From the NCBI GenBank assembly GCA_963704755.1, contig OY969938.1, positions 2,190,001-2,222,000 on the forward strand: a DNA stretch of 32,000 nucleotides, given 5' to 3'. Every line of letters begins with the position of its first letter. Within the stretch, counting starts at the first letter, position 1. The notes below the pieces were generated by a model, which had not been told where the DNA came from, searched no databases, and worked only from the letters and a program-made list of their open reading frames with translations. Made by a program: the position numbers and the translations under genes. Source of the stretch: an uncultured Chloroflexia bacterium (GTDB taxonomy: Bacteria; Chloroflexota; Anaerolineae; Anaerolineales; Anaerolineaceae). This document shows positions 20,706-31,168 of the stretch, one piece after another.

Positions 20706-21443
20706 TCACCCGCCGTTCAAAGCCGCATTGATCGCCTTGGAAATGTCATCGAAGGAGGGGATGTAGTTGGGGCCGGCGCTGCTGACAACCATCTTGCCAT
20801 CCACAAAAATACCGGGAGTGGGCGGCACACCCAGGGCATCACCCGCCGTGACGTCTTTTTGAATCTCAGCGGCATAGGTGTCGGCCGCGAAGCACTTATT
20901 GAAATCGGTCATGTTCAGGCCAATATCCTGGGCAAAGGCGGTCAAACGGTCTTTGGTGTACGAACCGGCATTCTCGCCCAGCCAGTTGGCGAAAGCGATC
21001 GCGTGGAAGTCCCAGAACTTACCCTGCGCTGCCGCGCACATGGCCGCGTTGGCCGCATCGTGCGATTCGCCCTGGCCGCCATCGATGAAGGGATAGAAAT
21101 GGAAGGTGTAATAAACCTTACCGGTATCTACAAAGGTCTGGATGACCTGTGGCTCGAGGCTACGCGAATAGGATAAACAGCCTGAGCATTGAAAATCTTC
21201 CCAAACGTCCATTTTGACCGTCGCATTCGGATCCCCGACACTGGTCTGGTTGACCGGTACAGCGAAAGAAGGCGGTGTGATCTGGACGATCGAACTGGTA
21301 TCCGGACTGGCCGGCTTTTAACTCGTCACAATCAGCACCACTGCGAGCGCTATGGCGACGACCGCCACAGAAAAGATAACGATGAGCCGGTTGCGGCTCT
21401 TTTGTTTTTGAACACGTTTGCGATATTCCTGACGTTTGCTCAT
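20706..21443 (-). pseudogene. Membrane-anchored DsbA-family thiol:disulfide oxidoreductase interrupted by one in-frame TAA
   Basis: The ATG at 21443 encodes MSKRQEYRKRVQKQKSRNRLIVIFSVAVVAIALAVVLIVTS (TM anchor). A TAA follows at 21318-21320. The same frame then continues KPASPDTSSIVQITPPSFAVPVNQTSVGDPNATVKMDVWEDFQCSGC... through the thioredoxin-fold ORF 20706-21212 (CSGC active site). An extended -10 (TGTATAAT; the TATAAT hexamer is the complement of 21491-21496) lies upstream. Confidence 0.7.
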
Positions 21444-21747: not shown

Positions 21748-23049
21748 CTATGATGAGGGGGTCTCCGACTGGGCCGGCTCGGGGGTGTTGCTGGCCAAAT
21801 CGGGGGAAGTGGGGGTCGGCTGCGGACTGGTCGGCGTGGGCGGCGGGCTGGTTGGGGCCACGGTCTCGGTTGGTGCCGCGGTCCAGGCCGGCGGCGTGGG
21901 AGTCGCTACGCTAAAGGTGGCCGTCGCTGCGCCTTCCTGGGTAGCGGTGGGCGTGCGCGTGCCGGTGGGAGGTGCTGTGGGCGTGGCGGGATGATCCCCC
22001 GGCAGAGTCAACATCACCCGGATATCCGGCCCGTACGGACAGGGGCTGCTGCCCGGGCAGGATGGGCTGCCGGGCTGCCAGCCGGTGTAGTTATCGATCC
22101 GCACCTGTACCTGCACCAGGTAGTGCTGGTCGCTTTGGGGAGTGAAAGTCAGGTCGAAGTAGTTGGTCATAACGTCTCCGGCCGGCATGGGCGAAGCGCT
22201 CGACCAATTCCAGGCGCTCGAGACGGCTTGCAGCGGCTGTCCGTTGCTGTCGGCGCTGAAGACCTGGCCTGTCAGGGTCAGTCCTTCGGCCGGCAGAACG
22301 CCGGAATTGAGCAGTTGCAAGTGGCTGGACACGTCCATATCCTGCCCGTTCGGGCCGACCGTGGCGTCTAGCAGTGCCTTGATTTCGGCCCCAGGGATGA
22401 GCGGCGCCGTTGGCGTGGCCAATGACAGGGTCGGCAGCAGGCTCGGGCTGTTGGCATCCAAAACGAATTCCGCTTGCGCGGCGGCGTCGGAATCGCAGGA
22501 GCCCTCGCTGCTGCAATCCGCCGACAAAACCCCAACGGCGGGTACCGCATTGCTGATGCTCACCTGGGCAATGTTGCGATAGCGGGTCACGCCGGCCCGC
22601 GGATTAAAGTCGAATTCGTAAGGGTAGCAGCGCATTCCGCCCGGATCGACCTGCTGATCGGGATTAATGATCTTGCTGGCCCCATCCAATGGTGTGTACA
22701 GGCCGCTCTCGTCCAGGTATTCCACCTGGTCGAGAATATTCAGGCTGCGGGTGCCAAATTCGCCGGTGTTGTGGACGCAAATTTCACCGCGGACCACGGC
22801 CGGCAAATTTTCCGACGCCATCCCGTTGCCTGTTTTCCAATAAGCCATGACCGATTTTTGGGCCTCGATGGTGGTATTGCCCCCGGCATTGGAGCTGTCA
22901 AGCTGGCCGGTGCTCACCTGGCCAGAAGTACCCAACATATGGGCCCACCAGGTATTCGCCACCGGGATCGAGATCAAAGCCACGCCAATCACCACAGCCG
23001 CCACGGCCACGTGCAGATAATGCGTTTGCAAGAAATTCTTCAGGTTCAC
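21748..23049 (-). CDS. Cluster A large secreted protein with SipW-type-like signal motif and Pro/Thr-rich tail (paralog of 26191-27546)
   Basis: The GTG at 23049 overlaps the peptidase stop (GTGA). N-terminal h-region then PVANTWWAHMLGTSGQVSTG. Blocks shared with the paralog: GEICV.NTG, LNILDQ.EYLD.SG.Y.PLDGASK, RYRNIAQVSI.N, VRIDNYTGW.PG.P.CPGS.PCP.GPD.R. The last roughly 85 aa are P/T/A-rich. Confidence 0.8.
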   Translation of the reverse strand: MNLKNFLQTHYLHVAVAAVVIGVALISIPVANTWWAHMLGTSGQVSTGQLDSSNAGGNTTIEAQKSVMAYWKTGNGMASENLPAVVRGEICVHNTGEFGTRSLNILDQVEYLDESGLYTPLDGASKIINPDQQVDPGGMRCYPYEFDFNPRAGVTRYRNIAQVSISNAVPAVGVLSADCSSEGSCDSDAAAQAEFVLDANSPSLLPTLSLATPTAPLIPGAEIKALLDATVGPNGQDMDVSSHLQLLNSGVLPAEGLTLTGQVFSADSNGQPLQAVSSAWNWSSASPMPAGDVMTNYFDLTFTPQSDQHYLVQVQVRIDNYTGWQPGSPSCPGSSPCPYGPDIRVMLTLPGDHPATPTAPPTGTRTPTATQEGAATATFSVATPTPPAWTAAPTETVAPTSPPPTPTSPQPTPTSPDLASNTPEPAQSETPSS

Positions 23050-24269
23050 CGCGCTCCTCGCAACCAATCCAGGAACCAGCGGAAGAGAATACTCACCCAG
23101 CCAATCTTGGGAATCTTCAGGATAACCTTGCCCTCGTATGCAGATGCCGGCACAGGCTCGTCTTCAACGTTGTTGTTATCACCACGGGTGATGAAAGTAA
23201 GCTGCCCGTTGTCATTATAGATCTGCTCGACCCGGTGGACGATTAAATCGCCATCCCGCTGGTAACGGATGATATCGCCGACCTTGACACTGGTCACCGC
23301 CACGTTGCTGGTGACCACCACATCGCCGGCATAGAGAGTTGGATTCATGCTGACCCCGCTCATCAAGAAGGGCCGCACACCGAACAGGCCGGTGTTGAAC
23401 CAGAGCAAAATAATCGCAAATACCGCGACGATGATCCAACCCAGCCAGCTCCCCTGACCGGCCGCCGGTTTTTGATTCGCTGCCGCTGGTTTCGTTTTCG
23501 GGTCGGCAGCCGGCGCGATCCAGATATTCAGGAGCGGGATGGCCAGGGCGGGGATAACCGTCTTGACGAATGCCGTCACCACCCAGGGCAGTTGCGGCAG
23601 GACGGGCGGCAGCCACTCACTTGCCGCCAGGGTAACCCGGTAAATAATAGCCGGCCAGGGCCCTACGGTAAGCACCATAAAAGTGGCCAGCATTTGTTCG
23701 GCCAGGGTGGGCAGGCCGTATTTTCCAACGAATTGGAAAAGACCTGCGACACTACTCACTGACCCAAATTGATTAGCCGGTAAAGCCAGTAAGGTAAAAG
23801 AGAATGAAAACAGGATGAGGGCTAAAAAAGCGTGGCCCTTCCCAAAACATTGTACCAGGAAGGCACGCGTGAATTCAAATGCCAGAATTGGGGTAACCGC
23901 ATAAATCAAATTGCCCAACAAGACCCAGCCGCTGTGGCTGTAGGGCGAGTGGCCGAAGCCATAGATGGCCCCGGCGCCCATCACCGCCAGGCTTTGGACC
24001 AACCCGATCAAAAAGGCGATCAGCAAAAAGCCGGCCTGGACGGTCTGCTTTCCGGCCAGGTAGGTCCAGATGAAGTAAGAAAGCCCGGCCAGCAGCAGCC
24101 ATAAGGCCGGCTGAATGAGATACAGGTCCCAATCAGATGGAAAAACGCCGGGCAGGGCGAAATTAACCAGCACATACACCACCACCAGCTCTAAAACGGC
24201 CAGGATCCACAGCCAGTTGAGCTTCTGGGATCCTGGATGAGGCACAACTCGATTCTCATTCCCAAGCAT
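23046..24269 (-). CDS. Cluster A ER/archaeal-type (SipW-like) signal peptidase I fused to an N-terminal polytopic membrane domain
   Basis: ATG at 24269 with GGAGGA 6 nt upstream. The C-terminal roughly 150 aa carry SGVSMNPTLYAGDVV, IVHRV and TRGDNNNVEDEP (Ser/His S26B-type motifs). The N-terminal roughly 250 aa have about 7 TM helices with a conserved GFGHSPY motif. Confidence 0.85.
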   Translation of the reverse strand: MLGNENRVVPHPGSQKLNWLWILAVLELVVVYVLVNFALPGVFPSDWDLYLIQPALWLLLAGLSYFIWTYLAGKQTVQAGFLLIAFLIGLVQSLAVMGAGAIYGFGHSPYSHSGWVLLGNLIYAVTPILAFEFTRAFLVQCFGKGHAFLALILFSFSFTLLALPANQFGSVSSVAGLFQFVGKYGLPTLAEQMLATFMVLTVGPWPAIIYRVTLAASEWLPPVLPQLPWVVTAFVKTVIPALAIPLLNIWIAPAADPKTKPAAANQKPAAGQGSWLGWIIVAVFAIILLWFNTGLFGVRPFLMSGVSMNPTLYAGDVVVTSNVAVTSVKVGDIIRYQRDGDLIVHRVEQIYNDNGQLTFITRGDNNNVEDEPVPASAYEGKVILKIPKIGWVSILFRWFLDWLRGAR

Positions 24270-24325: not shown

Positions 24326-24937
24326 TCAAGGTGAGGTCAGGGTAGTCAGACAACTTGCATAGTCCATCGGATGGTTCCATTGACTCAGGCAGGAATGCAC
24401 CGAAAACTGGTAATCCGTCAATTCTAGCGCGCCATCGTTGACCTGGACAACCATCTGGCTGCTGGATCCGTCTTGGGGGACGAATTCGCCATGGACGTTG
24501 TCCTTGAAGGTGACGGTGAGCTCGTTGCAGGCAATCGATTTGGTCCCAGTTGTGGGTGAACCTGTTACGGTGCAGCCGGTCAGGTTCCCGGCCGAAATCC
24601 CGTTTCCATTGACGACCCAGGGCAGCGTCCCGGTATTCAGGAAGTCAAAAGTACACTTCACCGAATAGCCGGGGTAGCCGTTGACGATGTTGAAGTGGAT
24701 GGTCGAATGATCCGCCGAGTCAATCGTTACAACCGTTGAACCGATGTCTTGCCCTTCCGGCTCCGTTTCGGTACAGGAATAGCCCGTCCAACTGGCGTCG
24801 AGATTGCCGGTCTGGACGACGCCGCTGACCTGCAACTGGTCGGTCCAGAAGCCATAGGCCAGGCCCATGCCGCCCAGGGTGGCCAGGAGGATCAGCGCTG
24901 CGGTGCCCATTAACCAGTGTGTGGATCGGTTCAACAT
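24326..24937 (-). CDS. Cluster A TasA/camelysin-like small secreted protein 2 (Cys-rich)
   Basis: ATG at 24937 with GAGGAA RBS. Signal region ...LATLGGMGLAYGFWTDQLQVSGVVQTGNLDASW. Core VNGYPGYSVKCTFDFLNTGTLP. Six Cys. Orthologous-looking to the frameshifted 29504-30065. Confidence 0.8.
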   Translation of the reverse strand: MLNRSTHWLMGTAALILLATLGGMGLAYGFWTDQLQVSGVVQTGNLDASWTGYSCTETEPEGQDIGSTVVTIDSADHSTIHFNIVNGYPGYSVKCTFDFLNTGTLPWVVNGNGISAGNLTGCTVTGSPTTGTKSIACNELTVTFKDNVHGEFVPQDGSSSQMVVQVNDGALELTDYQFSVHSCLSQWNHPMDYASCLTTLTSP

Positions 24938-25001
24938 GATGTTCCTCAATTCTTCTTCAAGGTTTTTATGATTCCCTGAAACAAGATCGAATCTGAAGGA
25001 A

Positions 25002-25550
25002 TTACGGGTTAACCTGTACGAAGGTCAGGGTGATGGTTCCAGAATACGATGCCCCTTCGGCTGCAGTGGCCGTTGGAGTAAGGGTGATCTCGCCGGTGAC
25101 CGATGCACCATCTTCAATGACGTCCACATTAGGAGCAGTGAAACCGGGCGCTTCAAAATCAAGGGCGGCCTTGCTTGCCAGGTCCGTCGGGTCAAATACA
25201 ACACTTGACAATTTAACAGGGATGGTGCCATTATTTGCGATGGTGCCGGTCAAGGTGCACGTGTAGCCGGGATAGGCATTCTCGATCAAAACCTCGACGC
25301 GGTCGGAATCATTCGCCTCCGGATCACTGGACTGATCTACAATATTTGCCGAGCAAGTACCGACCTCCTCCATGCCGGCAGTCTCGTTGTCAGTAGCTGT
25401 GACCTCGGTGAAATGGACATTCAACGTCCCGGTTGATGCAGTTCCATGGATCTCAAGGGAATCCGTCCAGGCCCCGTAGGCGATGGCCATGGTGGCCAGC
25501 ACAAACAGCGCCAGCACCGTGATCAACAGAGTTTGCTTTTTTGAAAACAT
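25002..25550 (-). CDS. Cluster A TasA/camelysin-like small secreted protein 1
   Basis: ATG at 25550 with GGAGGA RBS. MFSKKQTLLITVLALFVLATMAIAYGAWTDSLEIHGTASTGTLNVHF. Core ENAYPGYTCTLTGTIANNGTIPVK. Motif spacing matches B. subtilis TasA as I recall it (AAFND..ASGTLDL; LKPGD....FENNGSL). Confidence 0.8.
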   Translation of the reverse strand: MFSKKQTLLITVLALFVLATMAIAYGAWTDSLEIHGTASTGTLNVHFTEVTATDNETAGMEEVGTCSANIVDQSSDPEANDSDRVEVLIENAYPGYTCTLTGTIANNGTIPVKLSSVVFDPTDLASKAALDFEAPGFTAPNVDVIEDGASVTGEITLTPTATAAEGASYSGTITLTFVQVNP

Positions 25551-26003
25551 GATTTAATCCTCCAAAAAAATCTTGTAAAACAGATTGGAGGGTGGCATAA
25601 TCACAGTAGTGTAGGGTGAGTGATTACGCCACCCATGCTAGGGGCCCTGGCAACCTCAATTTGCCGGGGCCTGTTTTTTAATGGTCGGCCCTATCGAAAC
25701 GGATGGATCCCTCCTTTCACCCGCTGCTCTTCCAACTCAGATCCCTCCGAGGAAGAAACACGGATCGAAAACCTCCACTCCCCGGCGGGCCTGATCTGTT
25801 GTGCGCCGTTATGTTGGCCACGCGTTGTATTTTTCTGTGTTATCAGCCGGGATTTCGATTCTGGCCGGTTCTGTTTTTTCGCAAGGCGTTAAAACAAAAA
25901 ACCAGCCACTTTCGTGGCCGGTTTCGCCATTTGCTCTGCGCGAGGTAATTCCCTTATGGAAAGGCGATCCCCCGTTTCCCCCGCGCTTCATCGCATCCAC
26001 GTA
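25551..26003 (-). promoter_or_regulatory. Long (about 453-nt) 5-prime leader of cluster A with conserved structured ends
   Basis: The 5-prime roughly 110 nt (25891-26003) and the 3-prime roughly 120 nt (25551-25675) are near-identical to the cluster B leader, while the middle is diverged. The 3-prime end holds a 15-bp hairpin (25590-25604 / 25620-25634) and an anti-SD CCCTCCAA (complement of 25585-25592) able to pair with the SD (complement of 25558-25565). Confidence 0.6.
25891..26003 (-). ncRNA. Candidate structured RNA element (riboswitch-like leader or small RNA) ending in an intrinsic terminator
   Basis: It starts just downstream of the promoter. Helix GCGCGGGG (complement of 25979-25986) pairs with CCUCGCGC (complement of 25938-25945), and one base pair covaries in the cluster B copy. 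An internal UUCC-loop-GGAA hairpin is present. It ends in CCGGCCAC-GAAA-GUGGCUGG plus U6 (25891-25921). Confidence 0.5.
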
Positions 26004-26010
26004 TAAATTT

Positions 26011-26038
26011 ATTATAGGTATAGATCGCGATTTGTCAA
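26011..26038 (-). promoter_or_regulatory. Near-consensus sigma70 promoter of cluster A
   Basis: On the minus strand: TTGACA (26038-26033), 16-nt spacer, TATAAT (26016-26011). Confidence 0.65.
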
Positions 26039-26190: not shown

Positions 26191-27546
26191 CTAGCCGGCC
26201 GGTGTGGCCGTCGGCGGGGGCGTCGCTGGGGTAGCGCTTGCCGGCGCCGGTGCAGTCGGCGTGGGCAGCGGATCGGTCGGCGCGGGTGTATCCGTCGGGG
26301 CAGGCGTAGGGTCAGCCGCAGTTGGGCTGGGTGTGACTGGGATATCCGTGGCCGCCTCAGCGGTCGCTGTGGGGCAGACAGTGGTCGCATCCGCGGTCGC
26401 GGTGGGGCTGTCCGCCGGTTGCGGAGGGGTCGGGGTTTCGGCCGGTCCGGCCGGCGTAGGAGCGAGCGTATCCGTCTGGCCGGGCTCCGACGTGGCCGTG
26501 GGAGTTGGGGTCGCCTCTCCCGGCAGGACCAACGCAATGCGCACGTCCGGTCCATTGGGGCAGGGGTCACTGCCCGGGCAGGCCGGGTCGCCCGGCAGCC
26601 AGCCGGTGTAATTGTCGATGCGCACCTGGGCCTGCAACAGGTAATGCTGGCCGGGTTGAGGGCTAAAGTGGATGAGGAAGTAATTATCCAGGGTATCGCC
26701 CGCGTTCAAAGGCGAATCGCTCGACCATTCCCAGGGTTCCGAGACGGCCTGGTCCGGCTTGCCATCCGCACCCGCGCTGAACAGTTGGGCCTTCACCGCC
26801 AAGCCTTCGGCCGGCAGTACGCCGGTATTGTGCAGTTGCAAGTGCCCGGACACATCCAGCCCATCCGCAACCGGGTCGATGTCGGCTTCCAGTTGAGCTT
26901 CGATCTCGGCCGCCGGTACGGAGGTACCCGTAAGGGCTGGGGCGGTGGGAGTCGGCAGCGGGCTCGGGGCAGCCAGCTCGAAATCTGCCTGGGCCATGGC
27001 TCCGTAGGCGCATTCGCCCGCGCTGCCGCAGTCGGCCGACTCGATGCCGGCGGTGGCGTGGTTGCGGATGCTCACCTGGGCGATATTGCGGTACTGTCTT
27101 ATGCTCTCCGGGGGGCGAAATTCGAACTCATACGGGAAGCAGGTTTGCTGGCCGGCCTTGACTTGCTGATCCGGTTGGATATTTTTGCTGGCGCCATCCA
27201 GGGGGACGTATTGGCCGCTCCCGTCCAGGTATTCGAGCTGGTCGAGAATGTTTAATCCCTGGGTGGCATACTTGCCGGTATTGCTGACACAAATTTCTCC
27301 GCTGACCACCGCTGTTCCGGTTTCAGCCGTCCCGTCGGCGCCGGCTTTCCAATGCGCCTTGGCGGATTTTTGCGCCTGAATGGAGGTATTGCCCTGTTGC
27401 GACCAATCGCCGGAAGCCGCACTACCGGTGACCCCCAGTATCTCGGTCCAAAACGCATTCCCGATCGGCAGGGTCACTAACGCGCCTGCGGCCAAAACTA
27501 TCATGGCCAGGATATTCAGCATCCTCTGGCGAATGAACTTTTTCAC
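26191..27546 (-). CDS. Cluster B large secreted protein with SipW-type-like signal motif and Pro/Thr-rich tail
   Basis: The GTG at 27546 overlaps the peptidase stop (GTGA), as in cluster A. N-terminal LPIGNAFWTEILGVTGSAASG. It shares the conserved blocks listed for 21748-23049. The last roughly 110 aa are P/T/A-rich. Confidence 0.8.
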   Translation of the reverse strand: MKKFIRQRMLNILAMIVLAAGALVTLPIGNAFWTEILGVTGSAASGDWSQQGNTSIQAQKSAKAHWKAGADGTAETGTAVVSGEICVSNTGKYATQGLNILDQLEYLDGSGQYVPLDGASKNIQPDQQVKAGQQTCFPYEFEFRPPESIRQYRNIAQVSIRNHATAGIESADCGSAGECAYGAMAQADFELAAPSPLPTPTAPALTGTSVPAAEIEAQLEADIDPVADGLDVSGHLQLHNTGVLPAEGLAVKAQLFSAGADGKPDQAVSEPWEWSSDSPLNAGDTLDNYFLIHFSPQPGQHYLLQAQVRIDNYTGWLPGDPACPGSDPCPNGPDVRIALVLPGEATPTPTATSEPGQTDTLAPTPAGPAETPTPPQPADSPTATADATTVCPTATAEAATDIPVTPSPTAADPTPAPTDTPAPTDPLPTPTAPAPASATPATPPPTATPAG

Positions 27547-28805
27547 AGCAGGCTCCCTACCCACCCCAGCGCCTGGCGCAGGTAAATACTCACCCAGCCA
27601 ATTTTCGGAAGGATCAAAATCACTTTCCCTTCGTACCGGCTGGCCGGGAAGGGATCATCATCGACGTTGTTGTTATCCCCGCGGGTAGTAAAGACGATCT
27701 GCCCGCCCTCGTTTTGAATGGCGACCACCCGGTGGACCACATCGATCGTATCCCGCCGAAAGCGGATGATATCCCCTACCTGGATGGTTGCGGGCGCCAC
27801 CTGGTCGGTGACCACCACGTCGCCGGTGTAAAGGGTGGGGTTCATGCTCGGCCCGCTCATCAGCGAGGGACGAACCCCTAGAAAGCCGGTATTCAACCAG
27901 ATCAAGAGAACCGCGAAAATGCCGGTCAAAATCCAGGCCAGCGGTGAGGCCGGTTCGTTCGCCTTTTTCTTTTTGGCGGCCAGCTTTTCAGCCGGCTTTT
28001 CAACCGGTTTTTCGGCCGGCGTTTCAGCCGCCGGGTCCGGGCGGTTCAAGACCAGCATGCCCAGGACCGGCACCACCACCCCGACCAAGGCCGCGGCCAT
28101 CCAGGGCAAATCCGGCAAGATGGGCGAGAGCCATTCGAAGGCCTGCAACACTCCCCGGTAGGCGATGCTGGCCAATGGGCCGCCCTCGATCACCAGGGAG
28201 GCCGCCAGCATCAATTCGGCCATCGCCGGGAGCAGGGTTTGCCCGGTGACGCTAAAAGCCGTACTTACCTGGCTTAACTGGGCGTACTGGCCCACCGGGA
28301 TCATCAGCGCCAGGGGCAGCAGCCAGGCCAGCAGGAAACCCCAGGGTTGGCTGCTCTTCCCCACCGATTTGCCCAGGTACCAGCGTCCCATCTCGATGCC
28401 GATCAAGCGGGTGCTGAAGAACCACAGGTTGAGCGCCACCATGGTCGCCTGGCGCGCATAGGGCGAATGTCCAAAACCGAGCAGCAGCCCCAGGATCACG
28501 CCAACCGCTAGTTGAATACCGCCCAGCATAAAACCGGTCAGGACTACGTTCCCCTGGATCAGTTTTAGCCCGGAACGGCCATCGACCTTCGTCAGGCCGA
28601 GCGCCAGCAGGGCCAGGGATATCCACACGATCGGCTGGAGGATGTATAAACTGAGGTCCGCCTGAACCACCGCCGGGAAAGCAAAATTAACCAGGACGAA
28701 TACCAGCCCCATCCAGGCCACCAGGATGAGCCAACCAAAACGCTGCAGCGCCGGTTGAATTTCTTCCAGGAAATGATTTGCCTGCCCCGACTTGATTTTG
28801 TCCAT
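27543..28805 (-). CDS. Cluster B SipW-like signal peptidase I fused to an N-terminal polytopic membrane domain
   Basis: ATG at 28805 with GAGGTG 6 nt upstream. SGPSMNPTLYTGDVVV, VVHRV and TRGDNNNVDDDP. N-terminal roughly 7-TM domain with GFGHSPY. A Lys/Pro/Ala-rich linker precedes the peptidase anchor helix. Confidence 0.85.
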   Translation of the reverse strand: MDKIKSGQANHFLEEIQPALQRFGWLILVAWMGLVFVLVNFAFPAVVQADLSLYILQPIVWISLALLALGLTKVDGRSGLKLIQGNVVLTGFMLGGIQLAVGVILGLLLGFGHSPYARQATMVALNLWFFSTRLIGIEMGRWYLGKSVGKSSQPWGFLLAWLLPLALMIPVGQYAQLSQVSTAFSVTGQTLLPAMAELMLAASLVIEGGPLASIAYRGVLQAFEWLSPILPDLPWMAAALVGVVVPVLGMLVLNRPDPAAETPAEKPVEKPAEKLAAKKKKANEPASPLAWILTGIFAVLLIWLNTGFLGVRPSLMSGPSMNPTLYTGDVVVTDQVAPATIQVGDIIRFRRDTIDVVHRVVAIQNEGGQIVFTTRGDNNNVDDDPFPASRYEGKVILILPKIGWVSIYLRQALGWVGSLL

Positions 28806-28886: not shown

Positions 28887-29447
28887 TTAATGTCTCTTGC
28901 TATTTTTTTGTTCCAGTTTCACCTGGATCGAGAAGGGCAAGTCGATTTTCTCTTTGACCTGGGCTCCCAGGGTCAGGGTCACATGGATTTTCGACCAGCA
29001 CGAAGACGGCAATCGGGAAGGATTCTTGCCCCAGGCGGGGGTAGAACCACAGGGCTGGATGACCTTACCCTGCATCCCTGGACCCTCGACCGCCGTAAGG
29101 ATCAGATCGTGCGGACTACGGTTGATCAGGTTAATTTGATCCACGCCAATCGGAAATTGGCCGGTATTGGCAAAATAAAGGTCGCACTGCAACTGGTAGC
29201 CCGGGTAGGCATTTTCGACCTGGATTCCCAGCGATTTGGCCCCCTGCCTGGAAGAAACCAGCCCCACATCCCAACTGGCCAGCGTGCCGGGCTGGGAAAT
29301 CGAACAAGTCCGGTAAAACCAGACCGCATCGCCCCGGCCCGGATCCAAATTTATACAGGCGTCGGCGGGCTGTGTTTTGAACAGGGTGAGCCCCACGGCG
29401 AGCAGAATAACGATCACAGACAGAAGCGGCAAGAATTTTATGTGCAT
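28887..29447 (-). CDS. Cluster B divergent small protein with the NAYPGY core but no AYGxW signal motif
   Basis: 186 aa. N-terminal anchor MHIKFLPLLSVIVILLAVGLTLF. Core ENAYPGYQLQCDLYFANTGQFPIGV. No obvious SD. No counterpart in cluster A. Confidence 0.65.
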   Translation of the reverse strand: MHIKFLPLLSVIVILLAVGLTLFKTQPADACINLDPGRGDAVWFYRTCSISQPGTLASWDVGLVSSRQGAKSLGIQVENAYPGYQLQCDLYFANTGQFPIGVDQINLINRSPHDLILTAVEGPGMQGKVIQPCGSTPAWGKNPSRLPSSCWSKIHVTLTLGAQVKEKIDLPFSIQVKLEQKNSKRH

Positions 29448-29503: not shown

Positions 29504-30065
29504 TTACCGGCAACTGCTCGCATTCGCTTGCTCGAAGGTGTAATGAATGGCAAAGGTGTAAGAAGCGTTTGTTTCAGCCTGGTCCAATACGGTGACCCGC
29601 ATGTTAGAGCCTTCACTGCCGCCCGGGTTGAATTTGGTGCACAACCCATCTGTCCAAACGACCTTAAGCTGGTCGCAGGTGGCGGTGAAAGTGCCGGTGG
29701 ACATGTCCTCCGGATCGACGACACAACCGGTCAGGTTGCCCTGGTTGAAATCGATATCGTCCAGGTAGACAGGGATCGTCCCGCCAACCTTGAAGTCGGC
29801 TAAGCAGTAGCCCAGGTAGCCGGGATAGGCATTATCTACCGTGACCTGAATGGTGTGCGGATCGGTCTGGCTGCTGCTGATCGTCGCGTATGGCTCGTTA
29901 TCCCCGCAGAAATGATCGATCCAGGCCGCATCGACTTCGCCGGTGGTGACTGTGCCCTGAACAGACAGCGAATTCGGCCCATACGCCATAGGCGACCCCC
30001 AATGTCAGCAGAACCACAACTAACACCAGAGCGGATATCGTTGCCATGCTTTTTGAAATTCTCAT
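29504..30065 (-). pseudogene. Cluster B TasA/camelysin-like small protein 2, disrupted by a 1-nt frameshift
   Basis: The ATG at 30065 (AAGGAG RBS) encodes MRISKSMATISALVLVVVLLTLGVAYGVWAE. The mature part SLSVQGTVTTGEVDAAW...DNAYPGYLGYCLADFKVGGTIP continues in another frame (ORF 29504-29989). The span is 562 nt, i.e. 3n+1. The shift maps to 29969-29972. Confidence 0.7.
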
Positions 30066-30139: not shown

Positions 30140-30673
30140 CTACGGAACAGCCTGCTCGGCCAGCAAAGTGTAGGTGAAGCTGTAACTTTCGTCCATGTGG
30201 CCGGTTTCGGTCGCCGGGATGGTGAAGTTCCAATAAATCCCGCCGCCATAAGTTGCAGCAGCTAAAACGTAATTGCCGCTGGTGCTGATCTGGTTGCCCT
30301 TGGCGTCGGTCAAATACATGGAGAAGAATGGAATTGTGTCCGAAGATGTTTTGACCAATCCGTGGACCTTGGCCGGGATGGAGCTCAAATTATCGATCGC
30401 CGATCCGCCTTCGCAGAAATATCCAGGGTAGCCATTGGAAATGGTGACGGTAATGTCATGGCCGTCTTCCGATAATTGGGCCGCACAGGTCGCCACGCCC
30501 TGGGCATCATCATCGTACCAAAGCGGCATGAATTTGACATCGAAACTGCCGGTGTGGACCGTACCGCCGACGGTGAGGGTCTGTGACCAGGCACCGTAGG
30601 TCAGTCCGAGGGAGGCCAGGCCGATCAGCAGCACAAAGGCCAGGGTGATATGTAAAGTTTTCTTGGAAAACAT
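30140..30673 (-). CDS. Cluster B TasA/camelysin-like small secreted protein 1
   Basis: Trimmed to the ATG at 30673 (GGAGGA RBS). MFSKKTLHITLAFVLLIGLASLGLTYGAWSQTLTVGGTVHTGSFDVKF. Core SNGYPGYFCEGGSAIDNLSSIP. The ORF-track N-terminal extension runs into the leader. Confidence 0.8.
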   Translation of the reverse strand: MFSKKTLHITLAFVLLIGLASLGLTYGAWSQTLTVGGTVHTGSFDVKFMPLWYDDDAQGVATCAAQLSEDGHDITVTISNGYPGYFCEGGSAIDNLSSIPAKVHGLVKTSSDTIPFFSMYLTDAKGNQISTSGNYVLAAATYGGGIYWNFTIPATETGHMDESYSFTYTLLAEQAVP

Positions 30674-31134
30674 GATTAAATCCTCCAGAATAAATGTATT
30701 GTAAAAAGATTTGGAGGGTGGCATAATCACTACAGTGATGCGGTGATGCGATTGCGCCACCCATGTTACCGGCCCTGGCAACCTCAACTTGCCAGGGTCC
30801 CTTTTTTGTCGGCCAGCTTTCCAGTCGAGTAGATCTCCTCTCCTTCCCCGTGGTTCTTCCAGCGCGAACTACTCCGTGGGAGGTACCCGGATTGAACTCC
30901 GCGCTACCAGGCGTGGAAAATGACCCGATCCACACCGGTAGTTTGGCTGTTTGTGCAATTTTGCTTATTTCCGTGCTGAGAGTTTCTGCTCTGGCCGGTT
31001 TTTTCGCTTCGATGCGATTAAAATAAAAAACCAGCCACTTTCGTGGCCGGTTTCGCCATTTGCTCTGTGCGAGGTAATTCCTCTTCGGAAAGGCGATCCC
31101 CCATGTCCCCCGCACTTCATCGCATCCACGTTAT
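30674..31134 (-). promoter_or_regulatory. Long (about 461-nt) 5-prime leader of cluster B, including the second copy of the structured element (31021-31134)
   Basis: Same conserved ends as the cluster A leader. Terminator hairpin 31031-31050 plus U-run 31021-30. Helix GUGCGGGG (complement of 31108-31115) pairs with CCUCGCAC (complement of 31067-31074). Anti-SD CCCTCCAAA faces SD CTGGAGGA. Confidence 0.6.
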
Positions 31135-31140
31135 GAAATC

Positions 31141-31168
31141 ATTATATAAGATTTATTGAAATTGTCAA
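31141..31168 (-). promoter_or_regulatory. Near-consensus sigma70 promoter of cluster B
   Basis: On the minus strand: TTGACA (31168-31163), 16-nt spacer, TATAAT (31146-31141). It sits in a roughly 250-bp AT-rich divergent region. Confidence 0.65.

Follow-up and report, generated by a model that had tools for sequence, protein, structure and literature searches.

Fibres of the TasA superfamily, AbpX included, build biofilm matrices in bacteria and archaea. Homologs of the P. abyssi AbpX have been reported from Thermoproteota, Bacillota and Chloroflexota, and the signal peptidase I (SPase I) associated with them typically carries ten transmembrane (TM) helices in bacteria as well as in archaea, as stated in a preprint of January 2026 (bioRxiv 10.64898/2026.01.04.697558). 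The preprint gives P. abyssi WP_338249487.1 as its example of the dedicated enzyme, devotes a single sentence to the ten helices, without suggesting a function; a full-text literature search returned no other paper mentioning the ten-TM SPase I architecture. The signal peptide junction of TasA carries Trp at P2 and Phe at P2'; LepB cannot cleave it, and the endoplasmic reticulum (ER)-type enzyme SipW is required (PMC10269814). The present analysis concerns a stretch of 32,000 nucleotides from an uncultured Chloroflexia bacterium (contig OY969938.1, positions 2,190,001 to 2,222,000; hereafter the window) and two paralogous genes in it, labelled pepA and pepB in this analysis. Each is predicted to encode a dedicated, intact SipW/Sec11-type signal peptidase I of an AbpX-class fibre operon, and each carries eight extra membrane helices ahead of the peptidase. 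Since the ten-TM architecture is described in the preprint, it is not new, and the window adds two members to it.

Both genes are on the reverse strand, as are all features given below unless stated otherwise. pepA (23046..24269) encodes 407 residues from an ATG at 24269, with a GGGAGG ribosome-binding site upstream, to a stop at 23046-23048, and pepB (27543..28805) encodes 420 residues from an ATG at 28805 to a stop at 27543-27545; public annotation gives genes of exactly these two lengths. The proteins share 43% identity over 403 residues (E=6e-96), extending across both domains, as well as the same architecture. In pepA, an N-terminal domain of eight TM helices (N-domain; residues 1-251, nt 23517..24269), delimited by the AlphaFold2 (AF2) model, the topology and residue conservation, is followed by a Lys-rich cytoplasmic Pro/Lys/Ala linker (residues 252-274, nt 23448..23516, APAADPKTKPAAANQKPAAGQGS), which is disordered in the AF2 model, and then by the signal peptidase module (nt 23049..23447), comprising the TM9 anchor (275-293), the S26 catalytic domain (294-389) and TM10 (390-407). 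The N-domain of pepB covers about nt 28044-28805. The original prediction, made by eye from this DNA, had described two paralogous ER-type peptidases fused to a membrane domain of about 250 residues and roughly seven helices; the paralogy, the peptidase type and the membrane domain are borne out, while the AF2 model raises the helix count to eight, and to ten for the whole protein.

The type of the peptidase half is evident from TIGR02228 (archaeal-type signal peptidase I), which scores 83.2 bits for pepA (residues ~294-406) and 81.4 bits for pepB (299-415), above the cut-off of 51.85. The signature residues of such enzymes, namely the Ser of S-M-x-P, a His rather than a Lys as general base, and G-D-x-N...D, are present in both copies. 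In an alignment of 94 homologs, S307 (the catalytic Ser of pepA, nt 23349-23351), M308 and P310 are invariant, and H345-R346, D364, N366 and D370 are 96-99% conserved, with H345, D364 and D370 at 99%. The top Foldseek matches of the full-length AF2 model are human SEC11A (7p2p_A, E=4.9e-5) and SEC11C (7p2q_A, E=1.2e-4), with target-normalised TM-scores of 0.65 and 0.67, respectively. Assignment to the Bacillus SipW equivalog (NF046067) was rejected, pepA and pepB scoring 47.9 and 46.9 bits, below its cut-off of 190.

The AF2 model of full-length pepA, built on the 94-sequence alignment, has a predicted local distance difference test (pLDDT) score of 88.7 and a predicted TM-score (pTM) of 0.78; when the N-domain was modelled alone, as had been proposed along with the original prediction, the values were 93.3 and 0.90, again with eight helices (20-38, 45-72, 79-103, 114-142, 144-162, 174-201, 204-219 and 229-251). 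The distribution of Lys and Arg agrees with ten TM helices. Over the 94 homologs, the linker holds on average 6.8 such residues and the TM4-TM5 turn 2.3 within four residues; further concentrations are at the N-terminus and in the C-terminal tail, and none falls in the TM7-TM8 loop. By the positive-inside rule, therefore, both termini of the module are cytoplasmic. The two most conserved loops are F-G-x-S-P-Y after TM3 and S-P-I-L-P-x-L-P-W after TM7, which in pepA read GFGHSPY (residues 104-110, nt 23940-23960; in pepB residues 110-116, nt 28458-28478) and PPVLPQLPW. The Lys and Arg counts predict that both face outward, as does the peptidase active site. In both AF2 models they meet in a small beta-bridge between residues 105-107 and 223-225. 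At about 10 residues each, the outer loops of the module are short.

Invariant or nearly so in the module are W57, Q92, F105, G106, S108, P109, N120, E132, R135, P187, G203, P204, Y210, W219, P222, L224, P225, W229 and P240. E132 and R135 form an E-x-x-R pair in TM4 (nt 23865-23876). The homolog alignments show no conserved Cys, His or Ser inside the helices of the N-domain and no conserved His anywhere in it. Residues 191 and 211 covary, being E/R in 75 sequences and Q/L, Q/M or Q/C in 16, and E191-R211 is the second strongest coupling in a direct coupling analysis (DCA; numbering offset by 16 in that run). The pair resembles a structural salt bridge joining TM6 to TM7 and counts against catalysis.

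All the motifs quoted in the original prediction are found in the two copies: GFGHSPY, FEFTRAFL and IEMGRWYL, LPQLPW and LPDLPW, and the Pro/Lys/Ala linker. A different picture emerged for the conserved, potentially catalytic His that it had seen in a membrane-embedded GFGHSPY. The topology places this motif in the extracytoplasmic TM3-TM4 loop, and its His position is occupied by Lys in 47, Arg in 15, His in 11 and Asn in 10 of the 94 homologs. The closest homolog (80% identity) reads GFGNSPY and another reads SFGKSPS, and 36 more diverse N-domains add Ser, Leu, Tyr, Gln, Glu, Ala and Phe at this position. Being so variable, this His cannot be a catalytic residue of the family.

Searches for relatives of the module with a name were negative. 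N-domain residues 1-253 gave zero Pfam or NCBIfam matches, PDB sequence and profile searches found no relative, and the domain-only model retrieved nothing significant from PDB with Foldseek (best E=0.29, all TM-scores below 0.26). For exosortase, archaeosortase, rhombosortase and rhomboid, there was no Pfam or NCBIfam match at E<0.1, and an invariant nucleophile (Cys, His or Ser) is missing from the helices; for SPCS1, SPCS2, SPCS3 and DUF5305, the N-domain had neither a Pfam nor a Foldseek match. Pfam, NCBIfam and hhalign thus agree with the earlier impression that no CPBP, rhomboid or sortase-like match is to be had. An internal duplication of four plus four TM helices, prompted by the two 'SP' loops, was rejected, the alignment of the two halves by hhalign giving 0.2% probability.

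The buried E132 and R135 bring up the reading of the N-domain as a second enzyme, an intramembrane hydrolase such as a divergent Rce1/CPBP-like glutamic protease with these two residues at its core, which would clear or clip the signal peptides left by high-flux subunit secretion. This is consistent with the invariance of E132 and R135 and the near invariance of Q92, N120 and Y210, all within helices, with the eight TM helices, as in MmRce1, and with a Foldseek match of the full-length model to Rce1 (4cad_C, rank 8, E=0.011, TM-score 0.50 normalised to Rce1). However, with the domain-only model, in which confidence is higher, Rce1 is not among the first 50 matches. Alignment of the N-domain by hhalign to an Rce1 profile gave 0.1% probability, the profile being narrow (yeasts only); it was derived by family alignment from a yeast Rce1 query confirmed by a PF02517 match and a 100% identical database protein. 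No window protein matches PF02517, and Pfam on the 36 diverse N-domains found nothing save one PF02517 match at E=3.4. Furthermore, the module has ExxR instead of EExxxR, it has no conserved His or HxxxN, and the FxxxH and HxxxN/D motifs are missing. The termini of MmRce1 are non-cytosolic, an orientation opposite to that of the module (PMC5874806), and a histidine kinase employs the module as its membrane part, as described below. A regular-expression search of the fetched loci found no CPBP gene. A second enzyme of this kind appears unlikely.

The fusion itself is widespread. An exhaustive profile search with the N-domain over 50%-identity clusters returned 1014 clusters at E<=1e-3, 587 at <=1e-10 and 255 at <=1e-30, a similarity that greatly exceeds chance, and an S26 domain follows the module in 129 of the 153 best relatives, the remainder being mostly fragments. 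A scan with a five-sequence alignment as query, restricted to one genome per species, returned 48 loci; module and S26 domain share a single open reading frame (ORF) at 45 of them, two are interrupted and one is cut by a contig end. The interruptions, by frameshift or stop, fall within the N-domain (L045, 5944-7202, Syntrophaceticus schinkii Sp3; L049, 5382-6609). The loci come from Chloroflexota (Anaerolineae, Dehalococcoidia, Chloroflexia), Bacillota (Syntrophaceticus, Syntrophomonadaceae, Tissierella, Lutispora, Clostridiaceae, Moorellales), metagenome-assembled genomes labelled Deltaproteobacteria, Actinobacteria and archaea (Bathyarchaeia, Culexmicrobium), and the archaeal relatives of the N-domain include the Thermoproteota type. 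Relatives that bear a name are annotated only as 'signal peptidase I'. AbpX-like genes neighbour the fused gene, in the same orientation, at all related loci whose available flank is long enough.

A rare natural split of the fusion was seen on two independent contigs, where a 263-residue module-only gene ending in the linker is followed, after 18 nt, by a 133-residue S26 gene with its own anchor helix. The break point is the linker, and the fusion is therefore genuine and the module separable; the eight extra helices are an autonomous membrane module. A merger of two genes by sequencing or annotation, which the original prediction had considered, was rejected as almost certainly wrong. The split arrangement is one point in its favour, but two uninterrupted paralogs, the 45 of 48 loci, the 129 of 153 relatives and the conserved character of the linker speak against it, and no artificial merging is seen in the relatives. 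The original prediction had also allowed for a well-known family routinely fused to S26 peptidases; the module belongs to no curated family, and it is routinely fused to this S26 subfamily.

Other architectures show the module beside different partners. In one protein (P0066, 955 residues; L052, 4001-6868), the module with all its motifs is the sole membrane part of a hybrid histidine kinase, being followed by GAF, PAS, HisKA, HATPase and receiver domains, with no AbpX genes nearby; in another (P0123; L055, 1466-3028), a weak receiver-like domain precedes it (NCBIfam, E=6.8e-5). In three further proteins (P0088, P0143 and P0097), the module is followed by a Lys-rich linker, one TM helix, a donor-strand-like segment and Ig-like or dockerin domains. 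Their junctions read AYP↓YWTETLNI.., AYS↓HWTDTIDI.. or AYS↓IWQQ.., so that a substrate-like unit replaces the peptidase and S26 is absent. Of these, P0088 (L053, 4001-5425) and P0143 (L054, 4001-5479) are located within AbpX-like loci, where the flank that is available contains no S26 gene. P0128, P0131, P0136 and P0142 join the enzyme to a substrate-like unit, combining module and peptidase with an extra TM helix, AYS↓HWSE.. and CBM96 or SdrD-like domains, and other module fusions carry LysM or RTX repeats. The substrate fusions tie the module to the signal-peptide/donor-strand region of the subunits, and the kinase shows that it can be the membrane part of a signalling protein. Partners of this range are to be expected of a binding module rather than an enzyme.

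The substrates share a sharply defined cleavage junction. The pre-subunits have a short signal peptide, and in 112 subunits drawn from all the phyla named above the consensus is G/A, Tyr at -2 (83/112) and Ala before the cut, followed by any residue, Trp at +2 (89/112), T/S, D/E at +4 (89/112), any residue and V/L/I; the mature starts of the window subunits are A-W-T-D, F-W-T-D, A-W-S-Q and V-W-A-E. The residues past the cut are the donor strand for fibre polymerisation, and the junction can be written G-Y-A↓x-W-[T/S]-[D/E]-x-[V/L/I]. By analogy with TasA, aromatic residues at P2 and P2', poorly processed by LepB-type peptidases, are likely to be the reason for the presence of an ER-type enzyme. 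The same junction does not explain the module, because SipW manages without one.

The reading that we favour, and to which we assign about an even chance, is that the module is a non-catalytic docking or assembly part of the dedicated peptidase. It would bind the membrane-embedded signal peptide and the nascent donor strand of the pre-subunit, or hold the fibre base; cleavage would thereby take place where the fibre is assembled, in step with donor-strand polymerisation. The module would then be an accessory subunit built into the enzyme, a loose parallel to the eukaryotic signal peptidase complex (SPC) with its non-catalytic subunits. We infer that it is not a second protease. The full motif set kept in the histidine-kinase fusion fits a binding or sensing module and argues against catalysis. 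The general idea of the original prediction, an unusual and probably functional additional domain, holds. Where it had left a choice between a second catalytic activity and a docking or polymerisation platform, the latter is thus favoured, and the former loses ground as the module has no invariant residue set like those of known intramembrane proteases.

Several observations weigh against a docking or assembly role. SipW of Bacillus subtilis, with two TM helices, cuts a very similar aromatic junction without the module, so that cleavage-site specificity as such does not depend on it. The TM9 anchor, which links module and peptidase in the AF2 model, has a pLDDT of just 62-71, and mean-field DCA on 279 fused sequences, too few for an interface, yielded intradomain couplings only, the inter-domain pairs being noise. 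The invariant buried polar residues Q92, N120, E132, R135 and Y210 would be equally at home in an enzyme or in a site that binds ions or lipids. In some AbpX-like loci the module is fused to a substrate-like protein with no S26 gene in the available flank, and it must therefore have a role without a peptidase in cis. A rather unlikely alternative is that the module represents an unrecognised membrane family with an activity of its own, either a new type of signal-peptide intramembrane hydrolase or a membrane-embedded chaperone or 'usher' passing the newly cleaved donor strand to the growing fibre. If so, AbpX-type fibre assembly would be enzyme-coupled at the membrane and not spontaneous, and the ligand-binding core would have been reused as a kinase sensor.

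The two peptidase genes lie in duplicated fibre cassettes. In the direction of transcription, cassette A comprises 25550-25002, 24949-24326, pepA and a gene for a 439-residue protein at 23067-21748, and cassette B comprises 30676-30140, the frameshifted 30065-29504, 29447-28887, pepB and a gene for a 457-residue protein at 27564-26191. The first gene of cassette A (25002..25550) encodes an AbpX-class subunit of 182 residues, in which the signal peptide ...MAIAYG is followed by AWTDSLEIHGTASTGTLNV; it matches the solved structure of the archaeal AbpX (PDB 9sj2_C, E=7.1e-7), its W28, the Trp behind the predicted cut, aligning to W2 of mature AbpX. The second (24326..24949) encodes a 207-residue AbpX-class subunit, in which ...LAYG is followed by FWTDQLQVSGVVQTGNLD (9sj2_C, E=5.4e-5, again with W2 of AbpX aligned). 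Cassette B begins with a 178-residue AbpX-class subunit (30140..30676; ATG, MFSKK), in which ...LTYG precedes AWSQTLTVGGTVHTGSFD; its match to the subunit hidden Markov model (HMM) has E=1.4e-69, the sequence being itself a seed member of that HMM. The next AbpX-class gene (29504..30065) is broken by a 1-nt frameshift near 29985, for which one extra T in GAATTCG is the apparent cause; the signal peptide MRISKSMATISALVLVVVLLTLGVAYGVW (...LGVAYGVW) and ...SLSVQGTVTTGEVDAAW... are read in different frames. Either the gene is a pseudogene or the assembly contains an error here. The third gene (28887..29447) encodes a 186-residue protein with an AbpX-like core (ENAYPGY, N.G..P) and an N-terminal hydrophobic segment, without GYA↓xWxD and with an unusually high content of Lys and Arg (9%). 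Such a protein could sit at the cap or tip of the fibre, accepting a strand without donating one.

The last genes of the cassettes are paralogs, each overlapping the end of the peptidase gene by 22 nt. The 439-residue secreted protein (21748..23067) has the N-terminal sequence ..VAN TWWAHMLGTSGQVSTGQLD and a Pro/Thr-rich tail, and the 457-residue protein (26191..27564), likewise secreted, reads ...IGNA FWTEILGVTGSAASG and ends in a Pro/Thr/Ala-rich tail. Both have donor-strand-like N-termini. Neither has a Pfam, NCBIfam or PDB match, and the tail has no TM segment or recognisable sorting signal; the 439-residue protein is possibly a tip or anchor component. A DsbA/thioredoxin-like gene (20706-21212; Thioredoxin_4, E=6e-20) follows cassette A immediately, in the same orientation. 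With 2-7 Cys in each fibre subunit, it may be linked to disulfide formation in the subunits. Elsewhere in the window, a 733-residue ORF on the forward strand (467-2668) has a trypsin-like peptidase domain at residues 112-264 and a DNA/RNA non-specific endonuclease domain at 460-696.

The composition of the cassettes bears on a further reading, in which the N-domain is a membrane anchor or base plate that holds the proximal subunit or caps its open groove, keeping the fibre on the cell and replacing anchors of the TapA/AbpB type. Pfam and NCBIfam scans recognised no TapA-like gene or sortase signal among the cassette proteins, and P0088, P0143 and P0097 look like membrane-tethered terminal subunits, the first two of them in AbpX-like loci. 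On the other hand, a single TM helix would suffice as an anchor, the outer loops have only ~10 residues, and the two large Pro/Thr-tailed proteins of the window are alternative anchor candidates. We consider a mainly anchoring role to be quite unlikely.

Both cassettes are preceded by leaders of the same arrangement, that of cassette A at 25898..26038 (promoter 26038->26011, aptamer 26007->25907, terminator-like hairpin 25925->25898) and that of cassette B at 31027..31168. Each has a perfect (12/12) match to the sigma-70-like TTGACA-16-TATAAT, and each is recognised as RF03169 (c-di-GMP-II-GAG) with 49.4 bits (E=5.4e-7) for cassette A and 46.5 bits (E=3e-6) for cassette B, the gathering score being 40. 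The 3' part of the aptamer forms the terminator-like hairpin with a T-run in each leader, and ~350 nt of conserved leader separate the hairpin from the first start codon; the ~570-nt leaders align at 84% identity. With c-di-GMP-II-type riboswitches ahead of the operons, the fibre system is embedded in second-messenger control.

Such control, together with the joining of the module and all its motifs to GAF-PAS-HisKA-HATPase-REC in P0066 and the receiver-like domain ahead of it in P0123, is what one would expect if the N-domain were mainly a sensor or signalling module that reports on the envelope or on fibre secretion, or receives a signal, and so tunes peptidase activity or matrix production. 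A comparable second role, not proteolytic, is reported for SipW of B. subtilis. Yet signalling fusions make up just 1-2 of 266 inspected relatives, peptidase and fibre subunits dominate the context, and the peptidase fusion has no cytoplasmic output domain beyond the short Lys-rich linker. A mainly sensory function seems as doubtful as a mainly anchoring one.

The module thus occurs in more than 1000 sequence clusters, in Chloroflexota, Bacillota, Actinobacteria and archaea, and has no database name; being so widespread and welded to the peptidase, it is an obvious candidate for a missing assembly or anchoring factor. Handles for experiment are provided by F105, N120, E132, R135, Q92, Y210, W219 and W229, the split version, the kinase and substrate fusions, the junction and the riboswitches.

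When compared to known systems, the module has as many TM helices (eight) as the Rce1/CPBP (Abi) proteins, likewise a Glu and an Arg of TM4 that do not vary, and one marginal Foldseek match to them, but it differs from them in its opposite orientation, its ExxR, the lack of the conserved His/His/Asn and of profile similarity, and a fold match that is not reproducible. It is therefore not filed under CPBP, although a very remote relationship may exist, given the narrow Rce1 profile. Prepilin peptidase, exosortase/archaeosortase and rhombosortase are likewise polytopic processing enzymes whose substrates share a sharply conserved motif; here, in contrast, the chemistry resides in a classical S26 domain, and the polytopic part, which has no HMM match, lacks a conserved set of the Cys/Arg/His, Asp/Asp or Ser/His kind. 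The eukaryotic SPC (SEC11A/C with SPCS1-3; 7p2p/7p2q) has the closest catalytic fold and the same idea of extra, non-catalytic membrane helices, whereas those of pepA form one 8-TM domain in the same polypeptide with no sequence or fold similarity to SPCS1-3, so that the proposed analogy would be one of function.

SipW of the B. subtilis tapA-sipW-tasA operon resembles pepA and pepB in being an ER-type Ser/His SPase for subunits of the TasA superfamily with an aromatic P2/P2' junction. It differs in having only the anchor and C-terminal helices, and in the TapA encoded beside it, a homolog of which was not seen in the window. The closest agreement is with the AbpX-associated ten-TM SPase I of archaea, Bacillota and Chloroflexota, which, like the window enzymes, is of the TIGR02228 type, is encoded beside AbpX-class subunits and has ten TM helices; compared by description only, nothing essential differs. 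To this class the window adds two paralogous copies, placed in duplicated, riboswitch-controlled cassettes.

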